From assembly GCA_973895155.1 (NCBI GenBank), contig OZ316892.1:293746-357745 (forward strand): DNA of 64,000 bases, given 5' to 3'. The notes beneath the pieces were generated by a model. It searched no databases. It was given only the letters and a program-made list of their open reading frames with translations, and was not told where the DNA came from. The stretch is from Marsupella aquatica (taxonomy: Eukaryota > Plantae > Marchantiophyta). Positions 1-32,922 of this stretch are shown piece by piece. The position numbers and the translations under genes are program-made. Position 1 is the stretch's first letter. Each line of letters begins with the position of its first letter.

Positions 1-1407
1 ACTTCTAGTTACTCCACCTATGCTAAGGATAGAGCCATGGAGTACGGGGAGATGTGTGGGGACCTGGCGCTCAGCATCTTTGGGGAGAAGTTGGAGCAGG
101 GACCCTTTTTCCAGAGGGAGATGTTGGAAAAGCACCGATTAGAAGAAGCGGTGACTTTGGAGAGAAGCAAGAAGGAGGAGGTCATCCGACGGCTTAGGGA
201 GAAGGAAGCCGAGGTGGAAGTCCTGCAGGCGGCCAAGAAAGCCCAAGATGAGTTGCGGATTAAGCGGCATGAGCTAAACATCATGCAGGGGCAGTTGGAT
301 ACCGCTAAGTCTGACAATCAGATTATCAAAGATAAACTGACTCGGACCCAAGGAGAGTTGGCCGACGCAGTCAAAGAAAGAGAGAAATGGAAGTGGGAGC
401 TAAGGGACGCAGAGGAGGCCCATTTAACCTCCAACAACCGGACCATGGCGGAGACTCAGAGAAGGGAGAGGGCGTTGAAGGGAGAGCTCGAAGATATCCG
501 CGGAGCCCTTGAGCAGAAGGAAGCAGAGTTAGGGAAATCCTATCAAGGGATTATTGCGCTGCAGCAAGAGCTTGCGTCCTTGAGGGCCAGCTTCAAGGCC
601 GACCTGCGTGAAAAGGACGACCAGCTCGACCAGACTTATGCCAAGATGAATAAGATGGAGTCTGTGGTCGTAGCGGAGCTTGACAAGGAGCTAAGAGCAA
701 CCCAGGAGGAGAGGGCTACCTTAAAGAAAGAATTGGAGGAAGCCAATAAGGAGTTGGAGGAGGCGCGCAAGGACCTGGACGAGACCCAGGAAGAGTTGGA
801 GGAAATCACGAGGAAGATGGAGAACCTACAGCCGCGGGCCGACAACCAAACGGAGCGGCTGAAGACACAAGCCGCAGTATTTAAATGCTTGGCTTCATCA
901 GGTCCAACTCCAATTGGGGGAACCCAGTTACCAGGGGTAGTATTGGCCGAAGGACAAGCCGTAACACTCACCCCGGTGCCGGAGGTAAGTGGCAAGGGGG
1001 AGGAACCGACTGTCAAAATAGGGAAGAAGTATAAGCGGAAACCTTCTAGGTCTGGAAGTTATACGGCTTCTCAAGCTGTTGTGACCGAGACGATAAACCC
1101 GGCACCAACCTCCGGTATCGGCACGGCGGTGGATCCACCAGTCCTAGGAAGTGGAGATGGCAAGGCCGAGGCCGGGAGAACCAGTGCTGCCGAGGTACCG
1201 GATCCTCCACTAGAACATGTCGGGGAGGCCATAGCCGTGGCGGAGGCCGTGACCGATGCTGAGGCCAAAGCCGAGGGTGGACCCAGTCAGGCCGATGAAG
1301 AGTTGACTCGATCAGGGGCAGGTAATCTGTTAGAAGACGGACCAACAGGAGTGGTTGCGGAGGAAGCGTTGGGGGCGTCCATTGAGGACCAGCCACCGGT
1401 GTCGTGA
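1..1407 (+). CDS. C-terminal coiled-coil part of the LTR-encoded protein (partial, open to window start)
   Basis: Frame is open from position 1. The 456-aa ORF 37..1407 aligns with the C-terminal part of the LTR ORF at 7673..11302. Confidence 0.8.
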   Translation, partial: TSSYSTYAKDRAMEYGEMCGDLALSIFGEKLEQGPFFQREMLEKHRLEEAVTLERSKKEEVIRRLREKEAEVEVLQAAKKAQDELRIKRHELNIMQGQLDTAKSDNQIIKDKLTRTQGELADAVKEREKWKWELRDAEEAHLTSNNRTMAETQRRERALKGELEDIRGALEQKEAELGKSYQGIIALQQELASLRASFKADLREKDDQLDQTYAKMNKMESVVVAELDKELRATQEERATLKKELEEANKELEEARKDLDETQEELEEITRKMENLQPRADNQTERLKTQAAVFKCLASSGPTPIGGTQLPGVVLAEGQAVTLTPVPEVSGKGEEPTVKIGKKYKRKPSRSGSYTASQAVVTETINPAPTSGIGTAVDPPVLGSGDGKAEAGRTSAAEVPDPPLEHVGEAIAVAEAVTDAEAKAEGGPSQADEELTRSGAGNLLEDGPTGVVAEEALGASIEDQPPVS

Positions 1408-2272
1408 CGGTGTAAGGGCGTCATCCCTTTTAGGAAGGGCGGACGTGTAGGTAGGAGGCGTGAGTGGGCAGGGTGGGCGCTGATCTCCAAGTTTAGACTT
1501 TGGATCAGGACCAGGAGACGGCCCTGACACTTAGATTAGTGGGATTTTGGATCCACGGGTGAGGACGACACTTGTGTAGATTAGGCTTACGCTGCAAGGA
1601 ATCAGGCGGATCCACGGCCAGAATAAGTAGTTGGGCTGCGGGGAGTTCAGGGCCTCTTCTTTAACAAGTTTTTAGTTGCACCAGCAGGGCTGGGATCAAG
1701 TAGTAAGAGAAGCTCTCGGTTAGTTATACAGTGACCCTTGTGTATATTCATGTTTCCTCATGCCTAAGAGCTGAATAGAGTTGGCCTCACGGCTTAGTTC
1801 GCAGAGCTTGTGTATGAGATGTACTGTTTGTATTACAAGTGCATGGTATAACTCAGTCCTAAGGAGTCATTTTGCTATTTGTGTGTCGCATTAACTTGTG
1901 TGAAGAGTGCCCACATCAACAAGTAGAAGGGAAGTAAGCAAGGGAGTGAGAGTTGGATGTGTCGAGCTGAGAGAGGTCTTAGCGGCTTAACCAAGCCAAT
2001 TGGGGATCATTCTGGCGGCGGAATCCAAATATACCTAACCAACAGGAGGGAAAGACAAGAGAAGGCCTAGATTAGGCCGGCTACGTATCTCATGACCCGA
2101 TGAAGGATCTGTCCAGTATATGTGTGTAAAATGTTAATAGTAGTAGTAGAAGGATGTTAGCAGCGTCCCATGCGGCTAAGCCGCGGAAACGGCCTTGCCG
2201 AGCACGAAACTTGCGGGAATCGGCTTGTGCGGGGGGGTTTCTTGGGTTTGGGGAGCCATGGGACGCACCACA
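1..2272 (+). mobile_element. 3' part of a family-A Gypsy LTR (diverged subfamily), truncated by the window start
   Basis: Colinear with the 3' half of the LTRs at 47650-52306 and 58531-63194, and ends ...GGGACGCACCACA at 2272. No PBS follows, so it is a 3' or solo LTR. The flank is a broken copy of the MULE palindrome (CCGACGCTAG). Confidence 0.92.
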
Positions 2273-6212: not shown

Positions 6213-6760
6213 TAAACTCTGTAAGGTATTCAAGTTGTAGTTCGGCAGCGAGGTGATGGCGAATGATATACAGTGCCTGAGCCTTTTGTTGTAATGTGCC
6301 ATTGATATCTGCTAAGATAATGTCGCCGAGGCCTTTCATGTTGAGAACAATTTATGTATTTTGTGCCCAAGATAAATAATTGTCGCCATCTGTTGCGAGC
6401 AATGGGAATTGGAGCTTCTCCAATGTTGTCATAGTCGACGAAAATTTTGTGGTGTACTTGGCGAAAGAAAAGAAATGTGTCTTGGGGAATTTCGTTCGAT
6501 GCTTCATTCACATGAATAGGGAAAAAATTCACAAGAGTAGCTTGAGAGTTGTTGGAGGAGCAAAATCATGTGCTTATAACGTGTTAAACTATGAAATATA
6601 CATACTGTACCAACAAAAGATGATTGAATTTCTCTTAAGCCAATGTGGCTTATCTTATATTGTACATTGGGGTAGTTGTAACTACCCTCTCCTAGTCTTG
6701 TGTCTCTTTATACCTAGGTATTGCATACCTCTTTGTATCATCATATGGACTAAGGGTTAA
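6213..6760 (-). mobile_element. Truncated Ty1/Copia (Bianca-like) element: LTR remainder, PBS and gag start
   Basis: Minus strand: LTR ends ...TTTAACA (6582), then CGTTATAAGCAC (Bianca-type PBS CGTTATCAGCACG). gag from ATG 6432 reads MTTLEKLQFPLLATDGDNYLSWAQNT*IVLNMKGLGDII..QKAQALYIIRHHLAAELQLEYLT. The first 18 bp of the LTR are at 47632-47649. Confidence 0.8.
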
Positions 6761-9700
6761 TGTGGTGCGTCCCATGGCTCCCTAAACCCAAGAAACCCCC
6801 CAGCTCAAGCCGATTCCCGCAGGTTTCGTGCTTGGCGAGGCCGTTTCCGCGGCTTAGCGGCATGGGACGCTGCTAACCTTCTACTACTACTATTAACATT
6901 TTACACACATATACTAGACAGATCCTTCATCGGGTCATGAGATACGTAGCCGGCCTAATATAGGCCTTCCCCTGTCTTCCTCTGTCTTCCTGTTAGGTAT
7001 GTTTGGATTCCGCCGCCGGAATGATCCCCAATAGGCTTGGTTAAGCCGCTAAGACCTCTCTCAGCTCGACACATCCAACTCTCACTCCCCTGCTTACTTT
7101 CCTTCCTTCTGTTGATGTGGGCACTCTTCACACAAGTTAATGCGACACACAAATAGCAAAATGACTCATTCTGACTGAGTCATACCATGCACTTGCCATA
7201 CAAACAGTACATCTCATACACAAGTTCTGCGAACTAAGCCGTGAGGCCAACTCTATTCAGCTCTTAGGCATGAGGAAACATGAATATACACAAGGGTCAC
7301 TGTATGACTAACCGAGAGCTTCTCGTACTACTTGATCCCAGCCCGGCTGGTGCAAACTAAAAACTTGCTAAAGAAGAGGCCCTGAGCTCCCCGCTGCCCA
7401 GGTACTTATCCTGGTAGTGGATCCGCCATTCTTTGCATCGTAAGCCTAATCTACTTAACAGTAATCTACTTGCCCGAATCTACCTATGTACAGCAAGGCA
7501 GGAGCACAAGTGTTGCTCCTACCAGTGGGACCGCAATCCCACTAAGCTAAGTGTCAGGGCCGCTCCTGGTTCTGATCCTAATCCTAAACGTGGAGATCCG
7601 CGCCCGCCCTGCCCACTCACGCCTCCTCCCTCCACGTCCGCCTTCCCTAAAAGGAACGGCGCCCTTGCACCGTCATGACACCGGTGGTGGATCCTCAATG
7701 GACGCCCCCAACACTTCCTCCTCAGCCACTGCCGTTGGCCCGTCTACTGACAGATTACCTGCCCTTGACCGAGTCAACTCTCCATCGGCCTGACTGGGTC
7801 CACCTTCGGCTTCAGCCTCGACACCGGCCTCGGCAATACCCACGGCTTCGGCCTCAGCCACTCCCACGGCTTCGGCTTCAGCCACTCCCTCGGCTTCGGC
7901 CTCCCCTTCCCCTAGGGTAGTTGGATCCTTAGCCGTGACCCTGTCTGGGGTCGGTGCTGGGTCTACCTCCTTGATCACCACGGCCTGTGAAGTCGTATTA
8001 CTCCTTGACCCTGGAGGTTTCCGCTTCTTCTTCGTTGGTGGCTCGGCAGCTGGTCCCTTCCCCTTCCCACTTACTTCCGGCACTGGTGCAGTTGACGCGG
8101 CTTGTCCTTCGGCAATTACCACCCCTGGTAACTGGTTTGTCCCAACGGGAGATGGACCTGCTGCAGCTAAGCATTTAAATACTGCGGCTTGTTTCTTCAG
8201 CCGCTCTGTTTGGTTGTCGGCCCGCCGCTGTAGGTTCTCCATCTTCCTCGTGATTTCCTCCAACTCCTCTTGGGTTTCATCCAGGTCCTTACGTGCCCCC
8301 TCTAGCTCGTTTTTGGCCTCCTCCTGCTCCCTGTGGGCTTCCTCCAATTCCTTCTTCAAGGTAGCCCTCTCCTCCTGGGTTGCTCTTAGCTCCTTGTCGA
8401 GCTCTGCAATGATGACAGACTCCATCTGGTTCATCTTGGCGTAAGTCTGTTCGAGCATCTCGTCCTTCTCCCTTAGGTCGGCCTTGAAGCTGGCCGTCAG
8501 GGACGCAAGCTCCTGCTGCAGCGCCATAATCCCTTGATAGGATTTCCCTAACTCGACCTCCTTCTGCTCAAGGGCTCCGCGGATTTTCTCGAGCTCCCCT
8601 TTCAACGCCCATTCCTTTCTTTGGGTCTCCGCCATGGCCCGGCTGTTGGCTGTTATGTGGGCCTCCTCTGTATTCTTCAGCTCTTGCTTCCACTTCTCCC
8701 TCTCTTTGATCGTGTCGGCCAACTCTTCCTGCGTCTGAGTCAGTTTATCCTTGATATTCTGATTATCAGCCTGCGCGGCGTCCAACTGCCCCTGCATGAT
8801 GTTCAGCTCATGTTGTTTAATCCGCAGTTCATCTTGGGCTTTCTTGGCCGCCCTTAGATCTTCAATCTCGGCTCCCATCCTCCTAAGCCGCCGAATGACC
8901 TCGTCCTTCTTGCTTCTCTCTAAAGCCACCGCTTCTTCTAATTGGTGCTTCTCCAACTGCTCCCTATGGAAAAAGGGTCCTACCTCCAACTCCTCTCCAA
9001 AGATGTCGAGCGCAAGTTCCCCACACATCTCACCATACTCCATGGCTCTATTCTTAGCGTAGGTGGAGTAAGTAGAAGTGATCGGCATCGCCCATCGTGG
9101 CCTCTGCTCCCACGCCGTCCTGCGGATCTCTTCAATCGTGGCTAGAGGTTTGCTTCCTTTTTCGGCTAGCCGCCTGATGTCCTCCGGCCAATCTCCTCCT
9201 GGTAAATCCTTTTCCTTAGCCAGGGCGGCCTCTTCCTCCTGCTTGATTCGCTCCTGAAATTCCTGCACCGTCTGTTTTATGCCGTCGAAGCTCGGGGGAG
9301 CAACATCTGGTGGGGGAGACTCAGGGCTACTCTGCTGGTTGGGGTCCCCTCGCACTACCCTTGGAAGTGTGGGGACAAACCGGCCACAGGTCCTTACTCC
9401 TGGAACGTGATGGTCCGACCCATAGCCGGAATTATCATGGCTGCAGTCCTCCACTGCCTCCTCTACTTCTTGGACGTCCGGCTTCTCCCTCTCCTCTTCG
9501 TCGGTAGGAGCTTCAGGCAATTCTGCCTCAGATTCGGAGCTTGAGGTTCCCACGTACATTCGAACACCTGGCTTGGATTCCGGCCTGATTCTCTCCTTGT
9601 CTCCAGCAAAGGGGTTTTCTCTTGTGAGCCGGTGTAGGCCTACCTCTGTAGTAGTGTCCTGCATTGTTCCCGTTGCCGTTGTTGTTGTTGTTGCCGATGC

Positions 9701-11417
9701 CGATTTCTTTTCTTTCTCCAGTAGTTTCAGCAGACTCTGCATGCCTGGTTGCTGCATCGGCAAGTCTTCCTTCCTGGGCCTAAACACCTGCTCGATCGTA
9801 GGACTAACAGGTGGTGGAGGCTTCTCAGCCAACGGCCTCGGTGTTGGAGCTTCCTCGGGTGCCCTTACCTGCAGGGGAAGTACCGGGGCAAAAGTCTGAC
9901 CTCTGGCATACCGGCACAACAGCGGCATGTGATAGCCAAGCCGCGACACGCTCCCCATGCCGATTACCTGCTGCTCCTCCTTTAAGATCTTCTTCAATTG
10001 GTTGAGGAGGTACCCGTTGTAGTCCCGGCTTGGGTCTGGCCTTTCTGCCAGATAGACCTGTGCCTTGCCGATCTCTGCCCTCGGCAAGTTACAATGCATG
10101 GTCACCCGCAAGAAGTTGATCATCTCTCCTATGTGCGGGTTGGTGCAGGTGTTCCGGAAGAAGCCATTCTTCGTTGATGGCCCGGGGAACGACCGGAACT
10201 CCTTGTCAGGCAAGGTCTTCCTGGTATCAACTTTGGTCTTATTGCCCATCGGCAAGCCAAACACTTCGGCAATTACCTTGGGAGTAAGATAGAAATCCTT
10301 CCCATATATCCTCGTGCAATTGGTCTCGGGTTCCCATGACCCCACGAATTCTAATAGGTCTGACTCCGGTACCTCCGGCTTCAGCCATGGTAATCTTACA
10401 AAGGCCTCCAAGCCGGATCCGGCCATGAAGCCTTGGTACTTCTTGGTCTGCATGGCCGTAAAGCATGCATCCTCCTCCCGTGCAAAATGTAGTTGCACCT
10501 CCACCGGTAGGGTTGCCGCCCAGCCCTTCCAGGTGTCATCCCTGGTTGGAATGGCCTTGATGGGATCGACCTCCTCCTCTTTGGCTTCTCCCTGCCTCCT
10601 GCTCTGCTGCTCGGCTGGCTTCTTTGGTGCCGCCGACCTCATTCTTTTTGCCGGGGTGGCTTCATCGTTGACGGCTCCCTTCCTCTTCATCTCTGCTGCC
10701 GTGGAGGTTTCTCCTAGCACCGTTGCCCGGGTCCACCTTTCCGTGCTACCCTTTAATTCCCAGTGTATGTCGTTGCAGTTCTTGATGGCCTCTCGGATGC
10801 CGACGACGCTGTCTTTGCAAAACAGAAGATCGTCGAGTTGATTGGAAGTAGGCGTCCACAGGAACTCGTCCTTGATGAGTTCGCCTCCTAAGAAAGCCGT
10901 CTTCTGCAGCTCCCACAATCGAGCGAGCTCCTGCCATTCTCGAGCTGCCCTTTCTGACTCCTCGTCCTCGTAAGTCTTGATGTACTCAGTTGCCCGTTCG
11001 AACAGGCATCCCCAGAAATGTGCCGCTTGATTGACGTTGCTCATACCCTCCTTAGGTTGATCGTCGGTATCTACTCTCTCCCCGAGTGCTTGCCTAAGCA
11101 GCTGACAGTAGTTGGCCTCCCGTAGTCGTCTGCCTAGTTCGTGCTCGCAAATGAGCCACCATCTCCTGCAAGCGCTCCTTACCCCTCTCCTCTGCCGGTC
11201 CTTCTGCCCGTTGATCCTTCCTAGCCGCCGACGCTTAACGCGCCCTAACCCTAATCGGGTTTTCACCCTCAGCCTTACCTCCGGCCTCTGCCCGGGTTCC
11301 ATGGTTGCCCCTAATTGTTTATATTTTCCTTGTTTTGTCACTATACTAAGGTGTTCCTAGGGTGCCTTCCTGCTTTACCCACTTAACCGGTCGAGTGATT
11401 CCTGTCTAGGCATCACA
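6761..11417 (-). repeat. 3' LTR of family A copy 1 (4657 bp)
   Basis: TG...CA termini; near-identical to 17642-22301, 47650-52306 and 58531-63194; preceded on the minus strand by the purine-rich AAGTGGGGAG. Confidence 0.95.
7673..11302 (-). CDS. Intact LTR-encoded ~1209-aa protein (basic N-terminus, Athila-ORF/Transposase_32-like middle, long coiled coil, acidic repetitive tail)
   Basis: Uninterrupted ORF entirely within the LTR; ATG in ACCATGG context. The motif GLEAFVRLPW..LLEFVGSW..IYGKDFYLTPKVIAEVFGLP resembles plant retroelement extra-ORF domains (judged by eye). An E/K/Q-rich heptad region follows. Confidence 0.8.
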   Translation of the reverse strand: MEPGQRPEVRLRVKTRLGLGRVKRRRLGRINGQKDRQRRGVRSACRRWWLICEHELGRRLREANYCQLLRQALGERVDTDDQPKEGMSNVNQAAHFWGCLFERATEYIKTYEDEESERAAREWQELARLWELQKTAFLGGELIKDEFLWTPTSNQLDDLLFCKDSVVGIREAIKNCNDIHWELKGSTERWTRATVLGETSTAAEMKRKGAVNDEATPAKRMRSAAPKKPAEQQSRRQGEAKEEEVDPIKAIPTRDDTWKGWAATLPVEVQLHFAREEDACFTAMQTKKYQGFMAGSGLEAFVRLPWLKPEVPESDLLEFVGSWEPETNCTRIYGKDFYLTPKVIAEVFGLPMGNKTKVDTRKTLPDKEFRSFPGPSTKNGFFRNTCTNPHIGEMINFLRVTMHCNLPRAEIGKAQVYLAERPDPSRDYNGYLLNQLKKILKEEQQVIGMGSVSRLGYHMPLLCRYARGQTFAPVLPLQVRAPEEAPTPRPLAEKPPPPVSPTIEQVFRPRKEDLPMQQPGMQSLLKLLEKEKKSASATTTTTATGTMQDTTTEVGLHRLTRENPFAGDKERIRPESKPGVRMYVGTSSSESEAELPEAPTDEEEREKPDVQEVEEAVEDCSHDNSGYGSDHHVPGVRTCGRFVPTLPRVVRGDPNQQSSPESPPPDVAPPSFDGIKQTVQEFQERIKQEEEAALAKEKDLPGGDWPEDIRRLAEKGSKPLATIEEIRRTAWEQRPRWAMPITSTYSTYAKNRAMEYGEMCGELALDIFGEELEVGPFFHREQLEKHQLEEAVALERSKKDEVIRRLRRMGAEIEDLRAAKKAQDELRIKQHELNIMQGQLDAAQADNQNIKDKLTQTQEELADTIKEREKWKQELKNTEEAHITANSRAMAETQRKEWALKGELEKIRGALEQKEVELGKSYQGIMALQQELASLTASFKADLREKDEMLEQTYAKMNQMESVIIAELDKELRATQEERATLKKELEEAHREQEEAKNELEGARKDLDETQEELEEITRKMENLQRRADNQTERLKKQAAVFKCLAAAGPSPVGTNQLPGVVIAEGQAASTAPVPEVSGKGKGPAAEPPTKKKRKPPGSRSNTTSQAVVIKEVDPAPTPDRVTAKDPTTLGEGEAEAEGVAEAEAVGVAEAEAVGIAEAGVEAEAEGGPSQADGELTRSRAGNLSVDGPTAVAEEEVLGASIEDPPPVS

Positions 11418-14400
11418 TAGCTCCCCACTTAATTGTGAAGCGTCCTCGCGAACAACTTCATCTTCGTCCATATAGTATTTCTTGAGGCGGTCATAATGGA
11501 TGCGAACTGGATATACCTCTCCCGTAATGTTGGCCAATTGCACGGAGCCATTGGGGAACATCATGGTTACTCTAAAGGGTCCTAACCAGCGAGTGTAAAG
11601 CTTTCCTGGAAACCTACTATACCTACTGTCATAAAGTAGCACAAGATCACCGGTATGAATACTAACTACTTTTAACCTTTTATCATACTGCTGCTTCATG
11701 ATATTCTGTCTATATTCTACTCTCTCGGCTGAAATCATTCTCGCTTCCTCTAAAGCTTCTAACCTATATTCTCGCTCCTTTAGGCTCTCCTCCGCTGAGG
11801 CTCTTTCCTCAATTGTAACTTGAAATGTCGGTATCTCAAGTTGCATGGGTACTAGGGCTTCTTGTCCAAAGGTTAAGAAGAAGGGTGTATGACCGGTAGT
11901 GGATTTATAGGCCAGATTGTAAGCAAAAAAAACAGCAAACAATTTATCATCCCAATCGAGTTTGTTCTGAGCTACTGTCTTGTTCAATATCTTTCCTATG
12001 ATCCCGTTTGCTCGTTCTGTCAACCCATTTGCCTTTGGATGGTAGGGAGTAGTAGGCCTATGTTTAACTAAATACTGCTCATTTAAACGACTAATTATGT
12101 CATTCAAAAAATGGGTTCCTCTATCACTAACTAATTCTAGGGGTGCTCCATACCTGGTGAAGATCTGCTCATACATGAATCTAGCCGTAGTAATTGCATC
12201 ATCCTTCGTTGTTGGTCTGGCCTCTACCCATTTAGTTGCATAATCCGTAGCCAGGATTATGTACTTGTTCCGTCGAGGGTGGGTCAGTGGTTTCAGAGGT
12301 CCAATGTAATCAATACCCCACTTCTCGAATGGTGCCAGAGGTAGAATAGGGTGCAGTGGATGCCTGGTGGACGCCCTTGGTCCTCCCGCTCGTTGACAAG
12401 GATCGCATTGTTTGATAAACTGATAGACATCTTTGTGCAAGGTGGGCCACCAGTAACCGGCATTTAATATCTTCTTAGATGTGGTTACTGGGGCAAAATG
12501 TCCTCCGGCCTCCTCTCCATGCATGGCCCGTAGGACTTGTTTTACCTCTCTCTTTTCCAAACACCTTTGAATCGTGCCGTTGATTCCATGCTTGTGCAGT
12601 ATGCCTTTAATGCACTGATACTGTCTGACCTTTCGCACAAAGACTGCGGCTTGCTCTCGGCTTAATCCTGGCTGTAATCTGGAAGTGCTGAGAAATTGTA
12701 AAATCTCAGGGTACCATGTACCAGCTATTTCCACAACGAATAGCTCCTCGTCGGGGAATCAATCATCGATGCAATCCGTGGCAGGTTTACCTGTGATCCT
12801 TGAAAAGAAGTCGGCATTGGCATGTAACTTTCCCGGCTTGATCCTCAGCTCATAGTCAAACTCCTGTAATAGCAAAATCCATCTTGCTACTCTGCCTGTA
12901 AGGTCCGGCTTATTGACTAGGTACTTCAAACTTTCATGATCAGTATGAAAGATTACCTTGTACCCTAGTAAATAATGCCTAAACTTTTTACAAGAATAAA
13001 TGACTCCTAATGCTTCTCTTTCCGTGGTAGAGTAGTTCCGTTTGGCATCGGCAAGCTGACGGCTTGCGAAGTATATGGGATGGTCCCTTCCTTTCTCATC
13101 CAACTGACTTAGTACTGAGCCAATACAGAAGCCCGAGACATCTACAAAAACATGAAAATCTTTGTTCCAGTCCGGTGCTATCATGACTGGGGCCTCTACT
13201 AACATCTGCTTCAATTCTACCACCGCTGTGACTCGTTCGGGTGTGGGTTCGAAGTCTGCTCCTGCCTTGAGCATATTGGTTAATGGTAAAGCTAGCTTGG
13301 CAAAATCCTTGATGAACCGGCGATAGTAACCAATGCATCCCAAGAAGGATCTTACATCCTTTATGTTCTTAGGTTGCATGATATCTAGCCATACTACTAG
13401 CTTACCTTTGTCAATCTCAATGCCCTTCCTTGATACCTTGTGACCTAGTAGCACCCCCTCGGTTACTGCAAAAAAACATTTATCTGGGTGTAACTTGAGA
13501 CCCACCTCTCTACATCTCATGAAGGTTTTCCTGAGGTATTTAGCATGTTTCGATGCCTTCCCGAATACTGCAAAGTCATCAATGAAGATTTCCATGAACT
13601 TTCTCAAGTAATCATGAAAAATGTTCACCATTAATCGTTGGAACATAGCTGGTGCGTTGCAGAGTCCAAACGGCATACGATTGAAGACATAGATCCCCCA
13701 TTCCGTGATGAAGGCCGTCTTGATTTGGTCTTCCTGCCGAATCCTGATTTGGTTATAACCAGAGTATCCATCCATGAATGAATATAGTTCATGACTGGCT
13801 ACCATGTCTAGTACCATATCAGTAAACGGTAAAGGAAAATGGTCTTTTAATGTTGCTTCATTCAGCTTCCTGTAATCCTGACAAACCCGGATCTTGGGTT
13901 TACCATCGGGTCCAGCTTTCTTGGGAACTATCACAATTGGAGACACCCAGTCTGAATGCAGGACTGGAGTGATGAATCCAGCTTCCACTAGTTTGTCGAT
14001 TTCTGTTTTGACCAGCAGGGAATACTTCGGGTTCATCCTTCGAATTGGTTGTCGAAATGATTTGGCTCCTAACATGAGATCAATTCGATGTTCCCCTAGT
14101 GTTGGATCTACTCCCTTTAGATCTTGGTGACTCCATGCAAACACATCCTGAAATTCAATCAATAAGTCACTGATCTCTTTCTCGAGCTCAAGTGCTAGGT
14201 TTCTCCCTAAGTTCAGTTCTCTTCCCTCTCCTAAGCCGAGCTTCCGATATTGCCGTGCTTGGATCATATTAATCTGCTTCTTCAAATTCGGGTCCAGTTC
14301 GGCTTCCAGTCTCTCTAATCTCATACCTCCATAAACTGGGATCTCGGCTGGACTAGCCGAGTCGGTCCCTTCCTTGGTGTCCATAGATTGTCCCCTTACC

Positions 14401-14672
14401 GGTCTATTCGGTTTTGAATTAGTGGTCGGCTCCCCTTCCTGCCTTGGCTCTAGATCGTGTCTGTCCATCTCATCCACCTCTTGCTCCTGAGAGTTAGGCC
14501 GCTGTGCTCTCTCGGCTTCTAATAGGGCCTCAATTTGTTCTGCCCTCGTAATCGGCTTGTATGCCGATCCCTTGGTATTTAATTCCTTGCCGATGATCGA
14601 TGGCGTTGTGGACCCCGTCGGCTCTACCACAACGCCTGCAGAAAATCCACTGTCCCTGCTACTGCTCCCCAC
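11406..14672 (-). pseudogene. pol: pol (RT-RNase H-integrase), one in-frame stop at 12759-12761
   Basis: RVCQDYRKLN, FIDD, RNase H DVSG..E..D..D, integrase HHCC zinc finger, D,D35E core (WGIDYIG, SDRG, ERAN), WLGPF. CGA>TGA relative to the intact copy 55276-58542. Confidence 0.93.
14602..14648 (-). promoter_or_regulatory. Putative -1 ribosomal frameshift signal (G GAT TTT + 10-bp stem-loop)
   Basis: Same heptamer and GGCGTTGTGG/CCACAACGCC stem as 55300-55346. Confidence 0.7.
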
Positions 14673-17572
14673 TTAGCCGTTTCATCCAATTGGTCTACAT
14701 CCTTAACTTCCTCCGGAATTGCAGCTAAAAAGGTGGATTCTATTGTAAAGCAGTCCTCGACCTCTTCGTCTTCTTCTTCCAAGTCACCTTCCATTGGTTC
14801 TTGCCATAATCCGCTGGGGGGTACCTCTGGTCCAAAGACACCTTCTTCGGTTAGGTTAGTGAGGCATTCTAACCAACGTACTTCATCGGCTGACTCCAGT
14901 CCACTATCGTACCCATCTACTTCCCTTATGCTTTTCCTACGGTCATCCTTAGTGTCCCAGGATACCGTGATAGAGGGGGTCCCGAAAGTGAACTGCTTTT
15001 TACCCCAATCTTCTATTACCTCGGCTAGGTACAGCCATGGCCTACCAATCAATAGCCGGAATGACGTAGGATTTACCGGCTTCATTACTACATAGTTAAT
15101 GCTAAAGAAGATACCTCCTATCTCTGTCTTGATGCCGGTTAACACTCCCGTCGGAATGACCTGATATCAATTGGCCATGTTCAACACTCTTCCAGTCATC
15201 TCCGGTGTTAGACCCCACCCTTTTGCTGTTGAATCAATCATAATACATACCCCTGATCCTCCATCGATGGGTACCCGTAGTAATAATTCTCCTTGAATCA
15301 TTAATGGTAATGCTGGGGCTCCTTGATCTTCTTCTATCATTAGTACGTCGGATCTGGTTGCTACCTTGGGTAATCTCAGCTTGCCGAGAATAGCCTTCCT
15401 TAATTGCTTCCGGAAGTACGGGCTATTTTTCAATAGTTGACCTACTGTTGCCGAGACTCTAGATTCTAGTACATCTTTAGCCAGGTCATAGGGAACAATC
15501 GGCTTCTCTTCTGGTGGTGTTTCCGTCTTGGATTCGGCCAGTTTTGCCACGCTAGTCTCCACAGTTGTTGGGTCTTCCGAAGCAAACAATGCTTTTGCTC
15601 GTTTTACATCCTTGGCAATGGCTTCGGTATTCTCCAGGGTTTCTAATTCTCTTAGTTGTTCCTTAACACTAGCCGTAACAGAGGGGTAGAACAACTTAGG
15701 ATGATCTCGATTGAAGTCGCTATCTTGTGAAGGATTGGTTTCACTGGTGGGCTCATGGCTTACCTGTATTGCCGGAGCCCTCCCTTCTCCTTCTGTTGAT
15801 GTTGACGAAGAGTCGATCCTTTCCTCCGTAACCTTCCCTTTATTTTTGGCCAGCCCATCCCACCTTTCCTTCCTTCTGGTAGATCGAGTAGAGACCCGGT
15901 AGCAATCATGATCTAAATCCTCCTCTGAGAAGGTTGATAGGGCTTCGGCCTCATCATCAGATGGTACGAACTCTGCCTCGGCATCCTCTTGCCATCCTAG
16001 TTCGATGTGGTTGATTTGAACTCCTCCGGGGGTAGTACCTGGCGGTAAGATCTTGATCGGCAAAAGCTTATGATTTGCGGCCAGGCCTGCCAACCAAGTA
16101 GGACATTGCCCTAGCATATGACCTTCCTGTCGGCATCCCATACATAGTTGAGCTGGTTGTCCATCACCCTGTTTGCGTGCATTCGGGCATTCTCTAGCAA
16201 AATGGCCAGGTTGACCACAATTATAGCACGCCGCAAATCTTTGCACATTCGGCCTAGGAGGTACTGACGGGTTCTGAATAATCCGAGGATACATCTCTCC
16301 TGGATTGTTCCTTAATCCTGACCACAGAGATGCAGGTCTGTTGGATAGGTCTCGTGCTCCAGTCTCACTGATGCCGAAAACACTATCAGCGGCATCTCCC
16401 AAAAAGTACTCTACTTCTCCCTGACATGGTCTGATCTCGGCCACATGCCGAACATGATTAGTATTAAGCTTAGGACACGCATCTTTATGGTGTCCGGTTT
16501 TATAACATAAGGCACACCATACAGAGCTATCCTCCTGTACTACCTTCTTCTTTGGTTTTACCTCTGCAATGATAGCCTTAAGTTGCTCGGTAAGGGCTAC
16601 GATGTTATCTGGTGGCTTAGCCTCCATCTTGACTTTCGTCTTCCCTCTCCTTCTGCCCTTCCTTTTCCTAGTTTTTTCTTCTTCAGAACTAGAAGATGAC
16701 TCACTCTTGCTACTCCCACTATCCGAGCTTGAGTTATCACTTCTTGACTTCTTAGAATGTTTCTTTTTCTTATCGTTTTTCTTATGGGTTGATCCTTCCT
16801 CTGATGAGGAACTCTCAGACTTAAGCTGTTTCTTCCGGCTTGTGATATCTGCATTAATGTATAATTGAATATCCTTAATTGCTTCGGCTAAAGTCTCCGG
16901 GTTCTCCTTCCTAATTGCAAAACTCATCTTCTGTGGCAAAGCATTCACCAACCATTGAAGTTGCATACCTTCAGATGCATTGGTCTTTGTACGTCTTACC
17001 AGTTTCTGAAAGCGTTGCAAGAACTTCCTGAAGGATTTGTTCTCCTTGAACCGAAGTTGTCCCAACTTCAGCACTGCTAGTTCTGAAGTTCCAATGGGTC
17101 GAAACTCCTTAACAAAGAGTGTTTTGAAGATATCCCAGATGGCTTGATCTTCCACATCTAATGCTCTGTACCAAGGCCTAGCCTCACCCTTGAACAGGCC
17201 GGGAAGAATCTGCATCTTGATGGCCGATTCTCCATTTGCTGCAGCGGTTCCCTCGAAATCATCCAACCATTCGTCCGGATCCTCATCTCCTCTCCCATGA
17301 AATGCTTTGTAATGTATGCGCGACCGCTGGCTCAATCTGGTCCCTGGCCTCTCGTCTGGCCGTGCCTCTGGTTCCCCCATGTCGGTTGGAGACTCACTTC
17401 TCCTTACCGACTCTTCTTCTGGTATGTCTTCTTCGACGCCACTTCCAGTTTTGGAGCTACCAGCTCTTTCTGCCCCTCTCAGTCGCTGTGTATCATGCCA
17501 CCCGGCGAGCTGCTGCAGTCGAGCTCTCTCCCGTTGAATCACTCTTTCTTCCCTCGGCGTAAGGTCAGTCAT
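14624..17572 (-). pseudogene. gag: gag-protease, in-frame stop at 15167-15169
   Basis: Retrotrans_gag-like N-terminus, three CCHC knuckles, protease motif IDGGSG; otherwise matches the intact 52376..55369. Confidence 0.92.
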
Positions 17573-17619: not shown

Positions 17620-17637
17620 CCCCTCCATCTAGCGCCA
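17620..17637 (-). promoter_or_regulatory. Primer-binding site, tRNA-Asn type
   Basis: TGGCGCTAGATGGAGGGG lies 4 nt after the LTR end; one mismatch to the complement of the plant tRNA-Asn 3' end as recalled (CCCCTCCTTCTAGCGCCA). Confidence 0.75.
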
Positions 17638-17641: not shown

Positions 17642-20600
17642 TGTGGTGCGTCCCATAGCTCCCTAAACCCAAGAAACCCCCCAGCTCAAGCCGATTCCCG
17701 CAGGTTTCATGCTTGGCGAGGCCGTTTCTGCGGCTTAGCGGCATGGGACGCTGCTAACCTTCTACTACTACTATTAACATTTTACACACATATACTGGAC
17801 AGATCCTTCATCGGGTCATGAGATACGTAGCCGGCCTAATATAGGCCTTCCCTTGTCTTCCCCTGTCTTCCCCTCCGTCTTGTTAGGTATGTTTGGATTC
17901 CGCCGCCGGAATGATCCCCAATAGGCTTGGTTAAGCCGCTAAGACCTCTCTCAGCTCGACACATCCAACTATCACTCCCCTGCTTACTTTCCTTCCTTCT
18001 GTTGATGTGGGCACTCTTCACACAAGTTAATGCGACACACAAATAGCAAAATGACTCATTCTGACTGAGTCATACCATGCACTTGCCATACAAACAGTAC
18101 ATCTCATACACAAGTTCTGCGAACTAAGCCGTGAGGCCAACTCTATTCAGCTCTTAGGCATGAGGAAACATGAATATACACAAGGGTCACTGTATGACTA
18201 ACCGAGAGCTTCTCGTACTACTTGATCCCAGCCCGGCTGGTGCAAACTAAAAACTTGCTAAAGAAGAGGCCCTGAGCTCCCCGCTGCCCAGGTACTTATC
18301 CTGGTAGTGGATCCGCCATTCTTTGCATCGTAAGCCTAATCTACCTGACAGTAATCTACTTGCCCGAATCTACCTATGTACAGCAAGGCAGGAGCACAAG
18401 TGTTGCTCCTACCAGTGGAACCGCAATCCCACTAAGCTAAGTGTCAGGGCCGCTCCTGGTTCTGATCCTAATCCTAAACGTGGAGATCCGCGCCCGCCCT
18501 GCCCACTCACGCCTCCTCCCTCCACGTCCGCCTTCCCTAAAAGGAACGGCGCCCTTGCACCGTCACGACACCGGTGGTGGATCCTCAATGGACGCCCCCA
18601 ACACTTCCTCCTCAGCCACTGCCGTTGGCCTGCCTACTGACAGATTACCTGCCCTTGACCGAGTCAACTCTCCATCGGCCTGACTGGGTCCACCTTCGGC
18701 TTCAGCCTCGACACCGGCCTCGGCAATACCCACGGCTTCGGCCTCAGCCACTCCCACGGCTTCGGCTTCAGCCACTCCCTCGGCTTCGGCCTCCCCTTCC
18801 CCTAGGGTAGTTGGATCCTTAGCCGTGACCCTGTCTGGGGTTGGTGCTGGGTCTACCTCCTTGATCACCACGGCCTGTGAAGTCGTATTACTCCTTGACC
18901 CTGAAGGTTTCCGCTTCTTCTTCGTTGGTGGCTCGGCAGCTGGTCCCTTCCCCTTCCCACTTACTTTCGGCACTGGTGCAGTTGACGCGGCTTGTCCTTC
19001 GGCAATTACCACCCCTGGTAACTGGTTTGTCCCAACGGGAGATGGACCTGCTGCAGCTAAGCATTTAAATACTGCGGCTTGTTTCTTCAGCCGCTCTGTT
19101 TGGTTGTCGGCCCGCCGCTGTAGGTTCTCCATCTTCCTCGTGATTTCCTCCAACTCCTCTTGGGTTTCATCCAGGTCCTTACGTGCCCCCTCCAGCTCGT
19201 TTTTGGCCTCCTCCTGCTCCCTGTGGGCTTCCTCCAATTCCTTCTTCAAGGTAGCCCTCTCCTCCTGGGTTGCTCTTAGCTCCTTGTCGAGCTCTGCAAT
19301 GATGACAGACTCCATCTGGTTCATCTTGGCGTAAGTCTGTTCGAGCATCTCGTCCTTCTCCCTTAGGTCGGCCTTGAAGCTGGCCGTCAGGGACGCAAGC
19401 TCCTGCTGCAGCGCCATAATCCCTTGATAGGATTTCCCTAACTCGACCTCCTTCTGCTCAAGGGCTTCGCGGATTTTCTCGAGCTCCCCTTTCAACGCCC
19501 ATTCCTTTCTTTGGGTCTCCGCCATGGCCCGGCTGTTGGCTGTTATGTGGGCCTCCTCTGTATTCTTCAGCTCTTGCTTCCACTTCTCCCTCTCTTTGAT
19601 CGTGTCGGCCAACTCTTCCTGCGTCTGAGTCAGTTTATCCTTGATATTCTGATTATCAGCCTGCGCGGCGTCCAACTGCCCCTGCATGATGTTCAGCTCA
19701 TTTCGTTTAATCCGCAGTTCATCTTGGGCTTTCTTGGCCGCCCTTAGATCTTCAATCTCGGCTTCCATCCTCCTAAGCCGCCGAATGACCTCGTCCTTCT
19801 TGCTTCTCTCTAAAGCCACCGCTTCTTCTAATTGGTGCTTCTCCAACTGCTCCCTATGAAAAAAGGGTCCTACCTCCAACTCCTCTCCAAAGATGCCGAG
19901 CGCAAGTTCCCCACACATCTCACCATACTCCATGGCTCTATTCTTAGCGTAGGTGGAGTAAGTAGAAGTGATCGGCATCGCCCATCGTGGCCTCTGCTCC
20001 CACGCCGTCCTGCGGATCTCTTCAATCGTGGCTAGAGGTTTGCTTCCTTTTTCGGCTAGCCGCCTGATGTCCTCCGGCCAATCTCTTCCTGGTAAATCCT
20101 TTTCCTTAGCCAGGGCGGCCTCTTCCTCCTGCTTGATTCGCTCCTGAAATTCCTGCACCGTCTGTTTTATGCCGTCGAAGCTCGGGGGAGCAACATCTGG
20201 TGGGGGAGACTCAGGGCTACTCTGCTGGTTGGGGTCCCCTCGCACTACCCTTGGAAGTGTGGGGACAAACCGGCCACAGGTCCTTACTCCTGGAACGTGA
20301 TGGTCCGACCCATAGCCGGAATTATCATGGCTGTAGTCCTCCACTGCCTCCTCTACCTCTTGGACGTCCGGCTTCTCCCTCTCCTCTTCCTCGGTAGGAG
20401 CTTCAGGCAATTCTGCCTCAGATTCGGAGGTTGAGGTTCCCACGTACATTCGAACACCTGGCTTGGATTCCGGCCTGATTCTCTTCTTGTCTCCAGCAAA
20501 GGGGTTTTCTCTTGTGAGCCGGTGTAGGCCTACCTCTGTAGTAGTGTCCTGCATTGTTGCCGTTGCCGTTGTTGTTGCCGATGCCGATTTCTTTTCTTTC

Positions 20601-22301
20601 TCCAGTAGTTTCAGCAGACTCTGCATGCCTGGTTGCTGCATCGGCAAGTCTTCCTTCCTGGGCCTAAACACCTGCTCGATCGTAGGACTAACAGGTGGTT
20701 GAGGCTTCTCAGCCAACGGCCTCGGCGTTGGAGCTTCCTCGGGTGCCCTTACCTGCAGGGGAAGTACCGGGGCAAAAGTCTGACCTCTGGCATACCGGCA
20801 CAATAGCGGCATGTGATAGCCAAGCTGCGACACGCTTCCCATGCCGATTACCTGCTGCTCCTCCTTTAAGATCTTCTTCAATTGGTTGAGGAGGTACCCG
20901 TTGTAGTCCCGGCTTGGGTCTGGCCTTTCTGCCAGATAGACCTATGCTTTGCCGATCTCTGCCCTCGGCAAGTTACAATGCATGGTCACCCGCAAGAAGT
21001 CGATCATCTCTCCTATGTGCGGGTTGGTGCAGGTGTTCCGGAAGAAGCCATTCTTCGTTGATGGCCCGGGGAACGACCGGAACTCCTTGTCAGGCAAGGT
21101 CTTCCTGGTATCAACTTTGGTCTTATTGCCTATCGACAAGCCAAACACTTCGGCAATTACCTTGGGAGTAAGATAGAAATCCTTCCCATATATCCTCGTG
21201 CAATTGGTCTCGGGTTCCCATGACCCCACGAATTCTAATAGGTCTGACTCCGGTACCTCCGGCTTCAGCCATGGTAATCTTACAAAGGCCTCCAAGCCGG
21301 ATCCGGCCATGAAGCCTTGGTACTTCTTGGTCTGCATGGCCGTAAAGCATGCATCCTCCTCCCGTGCAAAATGTAGTTGCACCTCCACCGGTAGGGTTGC
21401 CGCCCAGCCCTTCCAGGTGTCATCCCTGGTTGGAATGGCCTTGATGGGATCGACCTCCTCCTCTTTGGCTTCTCCCTGCCCCTTGCTCTGCTGCTCGGCT
21501 GGCTTCTTTGGTGCCGCCGACCTCGTTCTTTTTGCCGGGGTGGCTTCATCGTTGACGGCCCCCTTCCTCTTCATCTCTGCTGCCGTGGAGGTTTCTCCTA
21601 GCACCGTTGCCCGGGTCCACCTTTCCGTGCTACCCTTTAATTCCCAGTGTATGTCGTTGCAGTTCTTGATGGCCTCTCGGATGCCGACGACGCTGTCTTT
21701 GCAAAACAGAAGATCGTCGAGTTGATTGGAAGTAGGCGTCCACAGGAACTCGTCCTTGATGAGTTCGCCTCCTAAGAAAGCCGTCTTCTGCAGCTCCCAC
21801 AATCGAGCGAGCTCCTGCCGTTCTCGAGCTGCCCTTTCTGACTCCTCGTCCTCGTAAGTCTTGATGTACTCAGTTGCCCGTTCGAACAGGCATCCCCAGA
21901 AATGTGCCGCTTGATTGACATTGCTCATACCCTCCTTAGGTCGATCGTCGGTATCTACTCTCTCCCCAAGTGCTTGCCTAAGTAGCTGACAGTAGTTGGC
22001 CTCCCGTAGTCGTCTGCCTAGTTCGTGCTCGCAAATGAGCCACCATCTCCTGCAAGCGCTCCTTACCCCTCTCCTCTGCCGGTCCTTCTTCCCGTTGATC
22101 CTTCCTAGCCGCCGACGCTTAACGCGCCCTAACCCTAATCGGGTTTTCACCCTCAGCCTTACCTCCGGCCTCGGCCCGGGTTCCATGGTTGCCCCTAATT
22201 GTTTATATTTTCCTGGTTTTGTCCCTATACTAAGGTGTTCCTAGGGTGCCTTCCTGCTTTACCCACTTAACCGGCCGAGTGATTCCTGTCTAGGCATCAC
22301 A
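17642..22301 (-). repeat. 5' LTR of family A copy 1 (4660 bp)
   Basis: TG...CA termini, adjacent to the PBS. Confidence 0.95.
18563..22186 (-). pseudogene. LTR-encoded protein, broken by a CAG>TAG stop at 20942-20944
   Basis: ORFs 20942..22186 and 18563..20881 are the same-frame halves of the 7673..11302 protein. Confidence 0.88.
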
Positions 22302-30268: not shown

Positions 30269-32922
30269 AAGCAGCCCGCCAGCCACGATGGAGGAAATCC
30301 GCAAGGCAGCTTGGGAACAAAGGCCGCGGTGGTTGATGCCGATGACTTCTACTCACTCCACCTATGCTAAAGAAATAGCCATGGTGTACAGGGAGATGTG
30401 CGAGGAACTTGCACTCAGCATCTTTGGGGAGGAGTTAGAGCAGGGACCTTTTTTCTAGAGGGAGATGTTGGAAAAATGCCGATTAGAAGAAGCAGTGGCT
30501 TTGGAGAGAAGAAAGAAAGACGAGGTCATCCGTCGGCTTAGGGCAAGGGAAGCCAAGGTGGAAGACCTGAAGGCGGACAGGAAAACCCAAGATGAGCTGC
30601 GGATTAAGCGGCATGAGGATTTAGGATAAACTGACTCAAACCCAAGGGGAGTTGGCCGATGCGGTCAAGGAGAGGGAGAAGTGGAAGCAAGAGCTGAGGG
30701 ATGCAGAGGAGGCCCACATAGCAACCAACAATCGGGCCATGGCGGAAACCCAGAGAAGGGAGAGGGCGTTGAAGGGGGAGCTCAATGATATCCGCGGAGC
30801 CCTCGAGGAGAAGGAGGCCGAGTTAGGGAAATCCTATCAAATGATTATTGTGTTGCGGCAGGAGCTTGCATCCTTGACGGCCAGCTTCAAGGCCGACCTG
30901 CGTGAGAAAGACGACCAACTTGATCAAACTTATGCCAAGATGAATAAAATGGAGTCTGAGGTCGTAACGAAGCTCAACAAGGAGCTAAGAGCAACCCAGG
31001 AGGAGAGGGCTACCTTAAGGAAGGAGTTGGAGGAAGCCCAGAAGGAGCTGGAGGAGGCGCGCAAGGACCTGGACGAAGTGCAGGAGGAGTTGGAGGAAAG
31101 CACAAGGAAGATGGAGAACTTACAACGGCAAGCTGACAACCAAACGGAGCGGCTAAAGAAACAAGCCGCAATATTTAAGTGCTTGGCGTCATCAAGTCCA
31201 ACTCCAATTGGGGCAACCAAGTTGCAAGGAGTACTACTGGCCGAAGGACAAGCCGCGACACTCGCACCGGTGCCGGAAGGAAGTGGCAAGGGGAAGGGAC
31301 CAGCTGCCGAACCAGGGAAGAAGAAGAAGCGGAAACCTTCTGGATCAGGGAGTAATGCGGCAACTCAAGCCGTCGTGACCAAGGAGGTAAACCCGGCACC
31401 AACCACAGGCAGGGTCACGGCAGAGGATCCAACTACCCTAGAAGGTGGGGATGGCAAAGCCAAGGCCAAGACACTCAGTGATGAAGCCGGGGTAACGGAT
31501 CCACCACTAGAGCATGTCGGGGAGGCCGTAGCCGTATTAGAGGCCGTGGTCGATGCTGAGGGCGAAGCCGAGGGTGGACCCGGTCAGGCCGCGGGTGAGT
31601 TGACTGGGTCTGGGGCAGGTAATCTGTTAGAGGATGGACCTACGGTAGTGGTTGCGGAGGAAGCATTGGGGGCGTCCATTGAGGATTAGCCACCGCTACC
31701 ATGACGGTGGTGGAGGGCCACTCCTTTTAAGGAGGGCGGACGTGGAGGGAGGAGGCGTGAGTGGGCAGGGCGGGCTCAGATCTCCAAGTTTAGAATTAGG
31801 ATCAGGACCAAGAGGCGGCCCTGACACTTAGATTAGTGGGATTGCGGATCCACTGGTAAGAAGAACACTTGTGCTCCTGCCTCGCTGTACATAGGTAAAT
31901 TATAATTAGGATAGATTAGGCTTACACTACAAGGAATTAGGCGGATCCACTACCAAGATAAGTACCTGGGCAGCGAGGAGTTGAGGCCTTCTTCTTTAGC
32001 AAGTTTTTAGTGCACCAGCAGGGCTGTGAAACTTGTGTATATTCATGTTTCCTCATGCCTAAGAGATGAATAGAGTTGGCCTCAAGGCTTAGTTTGCAAA
32101 TCTTCATTGAATGGTAGCAATTTTATAAATTTTGTTCCCCCACAAAAAGCCCCACGGGAAGGGCGCACAAACAGGCAGCAAGGCCAAGAAGGCAACATCC
32201 AGTAGGGTAGCAGCCCAATCACACCGACACAACAAAGGGCCAGGCTTCCGCCTCAACCCAACACCCCCGCGCCCGGACAGAGCACAACAGGGAGGGCACC
32301 CCTAAATACACAAAGAAACACATCACACGGCCAGTCCAAATTTGGAGAGCACGGCCAAGAAAGCAACAAAAGGCAGCCAACAAGCGGCCCATCACCCAGA
32401 AGAGATCAATCTCCCACCACCGCCAACCCAACCCCTACGAAGACTGTCAATCCAGTTTGCAGATCTTGTGTATGAGAAGTACTGTTTGTATGGCAAGTGC
32501 ATGGTATAACTCAGTCAGAAGGAGTCATTTTGCTATTTGTGTGTCGCATTAACTTGTTTGAAGATTGCCCGCATTAACCAAGAAGGGAGTAAGCAAGGTA
32601 GTAAGAGTTGGATGTGTCGAGCTGAGAGAGGTCTTAGTGGCTTACCCAAGCCAATTGGGGATCATTCTGGCGGCAAAATCCAAACATACCTAAAGGAAGA
32701 CCAAGAGAGGAGGCCAAGGGAAGACATAGAAGAGGCCGACTACGTATCTCATGACCCGATGAAGGATCTGTCCAATATATGTGTATAAGTTGTTTGTAGA
32801 ATGAGGTTAGCAGCGTCCTATGCCGCTAAGCCGCAGAACCGGCCTCACCGAGAGCAAAACCTACGGGAATCGACTTGTGCAGGGGGGTTTCTTGGGTTTA
32901 GGGAGCCATGGGACGCACCACA
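30269..32922 (+). mobile_element. 5'-truncated, diverged family-A LTR with a degenerate LTR-ORF
   Basis: Homologous to the LTR 3' half (ORF pieces 30252..30458 and 30652..31689); ends GCACCACA at 32922; has internal deletions. Confidence 0.9.
32105..32453. mobile_element. 349-bp insertion with a 14-bp target-site duplication (non-LTR retroposon fragment?)
   Basis: Flanked by AGTTTGCAAATCTT (32091-32104) and AGTTTGCAGATCTT (32454-32467); absent from the other LTR copies. Confidence 0.7.

Follow-up and report, generated by a model that had tools for sequence, protein, structure and literature searches.

Open reading frames (ORFs) within the U3 part of the long terminal repeat (LTR) are known from vertebrate retroviruses, in which nef of human immunodeficiency virus (HIV) and bel2 of foamy viruses overlap U3; the U3 frames of mouse mammary tumour virus (MMTV), HIV and foamy viruses are much smaller than the one considered here. 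The sag/naf ORF of MMTV lies in U3, has its own promoter and, like the frame described below, is duplicated with the LTR at each replication (PMC9412291, in part). Among plant retrotransposons, Athila has a sense extra ORF (PF03078, PF20167) downstream of pol (PMC6317226), Retand, Grande and RIRE2 have additional ORFs (aORFs) that combine TRP28 with an SMC-like coiled coil, and Ogre has PMD ORFs (PMC7264820 and PMC11963269, in part). The aORFs of plant elements were described by Vicient and Casacuberta in 2020 in the internal region only (PMC7264820). We analysed a stretch of 64,000 nucleotides from the liverwort Marsupella aquatica (contig OZ316892.1; hereafter the window), which contains two copies, elements A and B, of a Ty3/gypsy retrotransposon that we call Athila-like. 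The original prediction for this DNA was that its giant 4.66-kb LTRs each contain a gene of ~1200 amino acids (AA).

As in Athila, the extra ORF of this element is in sense orientation and downstream of pol, the domain order is the same and neither an aRH domain nor a chromodomain is present (PMC6317226). Unlike in Athila, it is situated downstream of the polypurine tract (PPT) and in both LTRs, the internal region consists of 6.2 kb of gag-pol only, gag-protease and pol overlap in different frames, and the ORF falls below Pfam detection for PF03078 and PF20167. With the Retand, Grande, RIRE2 and Ogre ORFs it shares a globular domain plus a coiled coil, the lack of a transmembrane segment and a suspected nuclear role, but those are internal, mostly antisense ORFs of Tat elements with an aRH domain and, among the rows listed, LTRs of ~0.4–1.2 kb, whereas here the ORF is sense and LTR-borne (PMC7264820 and PMC11963269, in part). 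A length of 4.66 kb lies within the known range of plant LTRs, as represented by Ogre and other giant-LTR elements (1.9–6.5 kb), with planarian Burro as a further case; in Ogre, however, the extra ORFs are internal and the account of these elements describes no LTR-encoded genes (PMC6431247), whereas 78% of the LTR is coding here. The differences from MMTV, HIV and foamy viruses are that the host element is a plant retrotransposon, that the ORF measures 3.6 kb and specifies no transmembrane segment, and that there is no sequence link. Literature phrase searches, a limited test in which a published survey may conceal cases, found no plant retrotransposon with an LTR-encoded gene. Since 5-kb LTRs, extra ORFs and retroviral U3 genes are all known, the LTR gene is a variant and not a new category: the OTA extra-ORF theme in a retrovirus-like position.

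Self-BLAST of the window revealed the 4.66-kb repeat in four full and three partial copies (Table 1), all four full ones starting with TGTGATGC and ending with GCACCACA. At the 5' edge the neighbour is the PPT in both 3' LTRs and otherwise one of three unrelated flanks (22301, 47650, 63771); at the 3' edge it is the primer binding site (PBS) in both 5' LTRs and otherwise one of four unrelated flanks (6761, 63194, 2272, 32922). The 5' TG is common to five copies and the 3' CA to six, with differing neighbours. Contigs of other sequencing runs, one from X6 (record 16, 11148–11417, covering the ATG of the ORF) and one from X8 (record 32), cease to match exactly at 11417. The summed contig depth of runs X1 and X2, either of which may be the source of the window itself, drops from ~300,000–570,000 to 779–5,024 left of 6761; it is ~4-fold higher in the LTR than in the internal region, a ratio that is not a copy number and was not used as a count of solo LTRs. 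Among the sequencing runs listed as containing this DNA there was no RNA run, a result without bearing on expression. Because a PBS, a PPT and gag-pol in gypsy order lie between the copies, the repeat is a true LTR, its edges fixed by the different neighbours. The giant LTRs of the original prediction thus stand at their full length, with both edges holding and the ORF inside them. No solo LTR flanked by a target site duplication (TSD) was found within the 64-kb window.

The ORF is present inside the LTR at both ends of the element. It had been predicted to cover about 78% of the LTR in sense from ~115 nt inside the TG end, and indeed extends over LTR nt 116–3745 (77.9%). Its 1,227 open codons compare with a longest run of 390 (median 168) when the LTR was simulated 1,000 times with a second-order Markov model, and the other five frames contain 23–59 stops each. 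The expectation of one intact copy, 1–3 lesions in the other three full LTRs (the counts are 1, 1 and 3) and an open frame in the diverged copy at 1–1407 was borne out, the last being stop-free over aa 742–1209. A second in-frame ATG occurs at 11044 (M87), near which similarity to homologs begins, and 5/5 copies covering these sites retain both a favourable start context and, at LTR nt ~143, a donor-like GAG|GTAAG. Because a TATA-like box stands 20 nt before M1 and the donor-like site follows it, an M87 start or an intron-like piece is suspected, and the actual protein may begin at M87 or lack that piece. Telomere-like or telo-box-like TTAGGG repeats, TTAGGGTTAGGG, lie beside the donor-like site in the first codons of the ORF (11250–11275, minus strand).

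Nei-Gojobori dN/dS of the whole ORF against the diverged copies was 0.30–0.33. Selection was then split by ORF region, with transition bias corrected via kappa values of 1, 3 and 6, on three pairs involving copies 14–17% different, which are not independent of each other. For aa 716–1040 these gave dN/dS ratios of 0.19–0.22, 0.27–0.33 and 0.33–0.39, respectively, with upper confidence limits of 0.54 or less. Codons with synonymous changes only numbered 53, 61 and 50 in this region against null means of 24, 30 and 25, and none of 2,000 permutations reached the observed values. Copy D1 has no stop where 6.8 were expected; each of the four indels in its ORF has a length divisible by 3, while indels of 1 and 2 nt occur in its non-coding part. 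The coiled-coil region, aa 716–1040, is under purifying selection. Neutral evolution of the ORF, the outcome that would have told against the original prediction, does not apply to this part, but no clear constraint was seen in the first 86 codons or in the C-terminal tail, and because of this the true length of the protein may be below 1,209 AA. The non-coding 3' 912 bp of the LTR differ by 8–12% between copies, compared with ~0.3–0.5 at synonymous sites of the ORF, which fits cis-acting constraint. Among the 40 of 112 variant positions listed, those in aa 250–491 were six synonymous, one non-synonymous and one private to the LTR at 6761–11417, and carry little weight.

An HMMER search with aa 1–490 gave 22 matches at E≤0.001. 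Homologs cover aa ~87–246 (n=4) and aa ~250–470 (n=17), the best being 41% identical over aa 247–471 (E-value=6e-49); P0138, an unrelated Ig-repeat protein, was rejected. Two of the 15 homolog clusters looked up were named, both from Calypogeia fissa, the rest being unnamed or hypothetical. To judge from these alignments, aa 87–470 are conserved at the protein level in other organisms. Heptad repeats extend from aa ~786 to ~1030 and three basic motifs resemble nuclear localization signals (NLS). No transmembrane segment was found in the protein (best 19-residue Kyte-Doolittle mean, 0.98), so that a coiled coil without obvious membrane segment, as had been proposed, is confirmed; an env-like aORF was rejected on the same hydropathy value. 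Pfam reported weak coiled-coil matches only in the ORF and its homologs. An AlphaFold model of aa 245–480 was poor (pLDDT 45), and fold searches gave nothing usable among viral and PDB structures, a wide search reaching a best Z of 4.8 on a three-helix piece. No ESM Atlas match was obtained for aa 50–205 and no PDB sequence match for the protein; a word-index search with aa 1–500 among proteins of 664–2,116 AA found nothing, nor did an alignment search confined to proteins of 1,303–3,720 AA, which is weak evidence. Viral contigs matched neither domain B nor the PPT pattern.

The PPT defines the 5' edge of an LTR, so that any gene lying 3' of it belongs to the LTR and is copied to both ends at each replication. 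Elements A and B have internal regions of 6,224 bp each which differ at 34 sites, and in which Pfam identified gag with a zinc knuckle, then reverse transcriptase (RT), RNase H and integrase, in gypsy order. The PBS, TGGCGCTAGATGGAGGGG, is presumably of the tRNA-Asn type; the window contains no host tRNA. The pol frame crosses the PPT (core TTAAGTGGGGAG) and stops 12 nt inside the LTR, and because pol reads through in this way no internal region is left after integrase. Athila elements commonly, though not universally, have an extra ORF in that position; here it lies downstream of the PPT instead. Integrases ending in V[RS][EG]DAHG, the same residues as the PPT module encodes here, were found in 5/29 relatives with a scorable end (three by pattern and two SEDAHG ends by eye, in protein sequences only), and because of this a PPT at the end of integrase is probably shared in the clade.

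Further features of this region deserve mention. The 43-nt PPT module (11411–11454) reached very high depth in runs X5 and X7, where the sequence to either side of it was unrelated, and because of this other flanking sequence it appears to be reused by other families. A second copy of the PPT core, with one mismatch, lies in mid-element at 55272–55283 (plus strand) and 14676 (minus strand), and may be a central PPT or chance. It is just upstream of a slippery-like GGATTTT in element B (55300–55370, plus strand), followed 5 nt on by a 13-bp hairpin (-21.8 kcal/mol), at the overlap of gag-protease and pol, which is likely a candidate programmed -1 frameshift site.

The nearest named pol relatives are liverwort proteins, from Calypogeia fissa (67–68%) and Riccia sorocarpa (52–58%). 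A tree of RT-RNase H, midpoint rooted without an outgroup, built from 53/99 usable sequences (two thirds of the unnamed ones being dropped) and containing no Tat, Phygy or Selgy references, placed the element together with Calypogeia (SH 0.94) and a sister family present in the window, beside angiosperm elements bearing Transposase_32. Three Athila-like angiosperm gene models possess a Transposase_32 match beyond their polyprotein domains, and two of the three also have a coiled-coil family farther on. Gag, then RT-RNase H-integrase, between TG...CA LTRs with a PBS and a PPT place the element in Ty3/gypsy. Pfam gave no chromodomain in pol, and the integrase ends at the LTR; PF13456 (aRH) appeared in neither gag-protease nor pol and was listed for another hit. 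Tat (TatI–III, Ogre, Retand) was rejected with the required aRH domain not found, and Phygy and Selgy (7.7–10 and 4.4–6.7 kb, 4-bp TSD, tRNA-Trp or tRNA-Ala PBS; PMC6317226) with a size of 15.5 kb that is too long and a sole matching flank pair of 5 bp. Because its size, the PBS type assumed above and a probable 5-bp TSD, seen as one cross-element pair, fit the Athila entry in the table of Neumann et al. 2019 (7.3–22.8 kb, 5-bp TSD, Asp/Asn-type PBS with Asn in 12%; PMC6317226) and not those of Phygy, Selgy or Tat, we call the element Athila-like.

On balance we favour the reading that this Athila-like element has, in its LTR, a gene under purifying selection, most likely in U3, that likely encodes a nuclear, non-membrane accessory protein for its own family. 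From the position of the PPT the ORF probably lies in U3. If the plus strand is primed from a PPT at the far end of the integrase gene, all that follows would become LTR, and the extra gene, which in angiosperm Athila is kept between pol and the 3' LTR, would be remade at both ends at each reverse transcription. The layout may have arisen through a shift of the PPT to a place 5' of an internal gene or through direct entry of the gene into U3; the former route is plausible because extra PPTs have been reported for Athila4 and Calypso (PMC2829016, in part). Expression would follow one of two about equally probable routes: transcription of each LTR as a unit, initiated at a small promoter in its 5' end and terminated at its own poly(A) site, or translation of a spliced subgenomic RNA. 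Its product, a globular domain with a long coiled coil, would be an oligomeric nuclear adaptor for chromatin or DNA, serving counter-silencing, transcription or integration, in line with proposals made for extra ORFs of the PMD and TRP28 types. Such a role for the family's own benefit is quite possible but tentative, and is proposed because of the domain layout, the basic motifs, the lack of a transmembrane helix and the analogy with GENE23, TRP28 and PMD. GENE23 of Grande has a promoter of its own and a nuclear location (PMC7264820), TRP28 is predicted to bind DNA (PMC11963269, in part), and PMD proteins encoded by transposable elements have been proposed as counter-silencers, VANC21 being the proven case in a DNA transposon (PMC8616336, in part).

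A number of observations weigh against this reading. The selection signal comes from three related copies and aa 716–1040; the tail (aa 1041–1209) has a dN/dS of 0.5–0.8 with a permutation P of 0.08–0.16, aa 1–86 show no measured constraint (P=0.63), that on aa 87–153 is marginal (P=0.049), the mosaic copy at 58531–63194 has no synonymous excess (34 vs 38; P=0.28), and the window holds no diverged copy of domain B. A search downstream of the ORF, beyond LTR nt 3745, for a relic PPT gave no match to the core with up to 2 mismatches, and a purine run near LTR nt 4310 was unconvincing as one. Domain B was present in 0/19 metagenome loci with integrase relatives (32–48% identity), and these had no paired LTR either; no relative with an internal copy of the gene was found among them. 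The TATA-like box is just ~20 nt 5' of the first ATG, and nuclear location and function rest on analogy. The Transposase_32/Athila-ORF-like domain of the original prediction found no Pfam detection: neither the ORF, two N-terminal pieces of it nor the 22 homologs gave a match at the cut-off, including to Transposase_32 (PF20167) and ATHILA (PF03078). What survives of that claim are leads, namely ESM Atlas matches of aa 240–490 to Transposase_32 (87%) and ATHILA (73%) clusters at a score of 0.88 (scores <0.9 count as leads only), with 8/10 best family matches agreeing, and an hhalign comparison with three Transposase_32 segments, which put the N-terminal motif in register with a score of 16.5, barely above the 30/30 shuffles that it beat (14.9), at a probability of 0.55% and E-value of 0.1 with a 3-sequence profile. 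Homology of domain B to Transposase_32/ATHILA is plausible but tentative.

The selected gene could instead be unrelated to the extra ORFs of Athila, having been captured into the LTR from a mobile element or host gene and doing another job, such as scaffolding a cytoplasmic particle or RNA transport. With this would agree the want of a Pfam or solved-structure match, the lack of an Atlas match for segment A, the sister family (67% pol identity), whose ~2.0-kb 5' LTR has neither a frame >93 AA nor domain B, an Arg-rich N-terminus resembling RNA-binding motifs, and the many independent origins of extra ORFs (eORFs) according to Neumann et al. (PMC6317226). We nevertheless judge capture unlikely, given that the Atlas neighbours are plant transposon ORF families, that the hhalign register fits the Transposase_32 motif, and that the layout of domain, coiled coil and acidic tail recurs in extra ORFs. 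A different placing of the gene, at the 5' end of the RNA on the R/U5 side, with a transcription start near the 5' end of the LTR, the ORF as first cistron and gag-pol expressed via splicing or a second promoter, seems more improbable still. The TATA-like box, start context and donor-like site, kept as they are in every covering copy, could be understood in this way, and the 3' non-coding part of the LTR contains no clear TATA or AATAAA, TATATT being found there twice only; yet the arrangement would require minus-strand strong-stop DNA of >4 kb, and that same 912-bp part is the best-conserved part of the LTR, as expected for promoter, R and U5.

That the ORF is a drifting passenger held open through recent amplification, or the giant LTR an artefact of assembly or duplication, is very improbable. 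Three of the four full copies are broken and young copies have dN/dS ratios of 0.5–1.0, but neutral decay after insertion is expected in every copy and is also seen in gag-pol of element A, whereas the copies 14–17% diverged show a strong synonymous excess and D1 is without a stop; the passenger explanation is largely refuted for aa 716–1040. The window is rearranged and the TSDs are unpaired within elements, as an artefact would allow, but a PBS and a PPT abut the repeat on its two sides and the same edges were recovered in other runs.

Plant LTRs are treated as non-coding, and a selected 3.6-kb LTR gene alters the explanation of giant LTRs; the counting and annotation of solo LTRs would have to allow for their being gene copies, and the behaviour of LTR-pair dating is affected. 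The gene is also a clean handle on the long-open question of the role of OTA extra ORFs, since the family appears young and abundant, the liverworts include a tractable model, and the adjacent sister family, which has no LTR gene, can serve as a control. In the data of Neumann et al. eORF-5'F and eORF-3'F amount to 23% and 26% in TatII and to 33% and 18% in Tekay (PMC6317226), and these calls could include LTR-borne ORFs. It is conceivable, though rather doubtful, that a bryophyte Athila-like clade has turned its LTR into a self-contained cassette of promoter, chromatin or DNA adaptor of 1,100–1,200 AA and poly(A) site. If so, a full element would have two copies of the gene and each solo LTR would keep one, and LTR-LTR recombination, the normal route of deletion by the host, would leave many trans-acting genes for anti-silencing or targeting.

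Table 1. Positions in the window of the retrotransposon features described in the text
Feature	Position	Strand	Remarks
LTR ORF, 1,209 AA	7673..11302	-	sense to gag-pol; intact in LTR 6761-11417
aa 1-86, Arg-rich	11045..11302	-	donor-like GAG|GTAAG and TTAGGG repeats; may be 5' untranslated region or intron
Conserved segment A, aa ~87-200	10703..11044	-	4 homologs; no Atlas match
Conserved domain B, aa ~250-470	9893..10555	-	weak likeness to Transposase_32/ATHILA ORF domains
Coiled-coil region, aa ~786-1040	8183..8947	-	inside the part under purifying selection
Low-complexity tail	7676..8182	-	basic NLS-like motif at aa ~1094-1098; relaxed constraint
TATA-like TATAAA	11318..11323	-	LTR nt 95-100; kept in 5/5 copies covering the site
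Non-coding 3' 912 bp of LTR	6761..7672	-	8-12% different; presumed promoter/R/U5
3' LTR of element A	6761..11417	-	4,657 bp, TG...CA; carries the intact ORF
5' LTR of element A	17642..22301	-	4,660 bp; ORF with one stop (aa 415)
5' LTR of element B	47650..52306	+	4,657 bp; ORF with one stop (aa 522); TTAAC flank; 99.29% identical to 6761-11417
3' LTR of element B	58531..63194	+	4,664 bp; ORF with two stops (aa 237, 258) and a 1-nt deletion; LTR nt ~3000-3750 mosaic
Partial diverged LTR D1	1..2272	+	86%; ORF part 1-1407 open
Partial diverged LTR D2	30269..32922	+	83%, decayed; 5' side cut by sister element
LTR copy P, 5' 574 nt	63195..63771	-	94%; ORF decayed
PBS TGGCGCTAGATGGAGGGG	17620..17637	-	after 5' LTR with four T's between; likewise in element B
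gag-protease, element A	14579..17572	-	internal stops at aa 802 and 983
pol, element A (RT, RNase H, integrase)	11406..14468	-	one internal stop at aa 570
gag-protease (997 AA) and pol (1,020 AA from first ATG), element B	52376..58542	+	both open; pol in -1 frame
PPT module, core TTAAGTGGGGAG	11418..11454	-	overlaps last integrase codons
Flank TTAAC	6756..6760	-	same 5-mer as 47645-47649 (+)
Sister Athila-like element, decayed	22302-30268	-	pol 64-67% identical; inserted into LTR copy D2, cut by element A

The elements are flanked by GTCGG/TTAAC (A) and TTAAC/GGAAG (B), neither having a TSD pair of its own. Because TTAAC is paired across the elements and the LTRs at 6761–11417 and 47650–52306 are the closest pair (99.29% identity, against 98.84% for the two LTRs of element A), the DNA between the elements, 22302–47649, has likely been inverted, TTAAC being the split TSD of one insertion, although a chance match of 5-mers is possible. 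Recombination between the two inverted elements would have flipped the intervening DNA. GTCGG (22301) and CCGAC (2272) are reverse complements and not a TSD pair. A tract of the LTR at 58531–63194 (LTR nt ~3000–3750; window ~61530–62280, plus strand) diverges by up to 33% from the other three full LTRs and has indels in common with D1 and D2; because of this tract and its different flank, this LTR has a separate history. LTR-pair dating is unsafe in this window.

The 5' LTR of the sister family contains tandem GGTCCTT-type repeats (29136–29363), and its PBS is one that we take to be of the Asp type; the 3' end of the sister element is cut off. None of the 19 metagenome loci had the PPT pattern. 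The downstream ORF in one of them (L005) proved to be an unrelated gag and was rejected as a relative of the LTR ORF, and another (L006:7076–7831, plus strand) has a sense frame of 252 codons just after pol, which matches no Pfam family and does not resemble the LTR ORF. A weak DNA methylase match, below the cut-off, occurs at 2808–3413, and two ORFs with Cys residues (43355–44239 and 46008–47006) have no Pfam matches. The regions 2273–5900 and 33000–47600 consist of decayed repeats of another class with the palindromic motifs CTAGCGCC and TGGCGCTAG, possibly DNA transposons.

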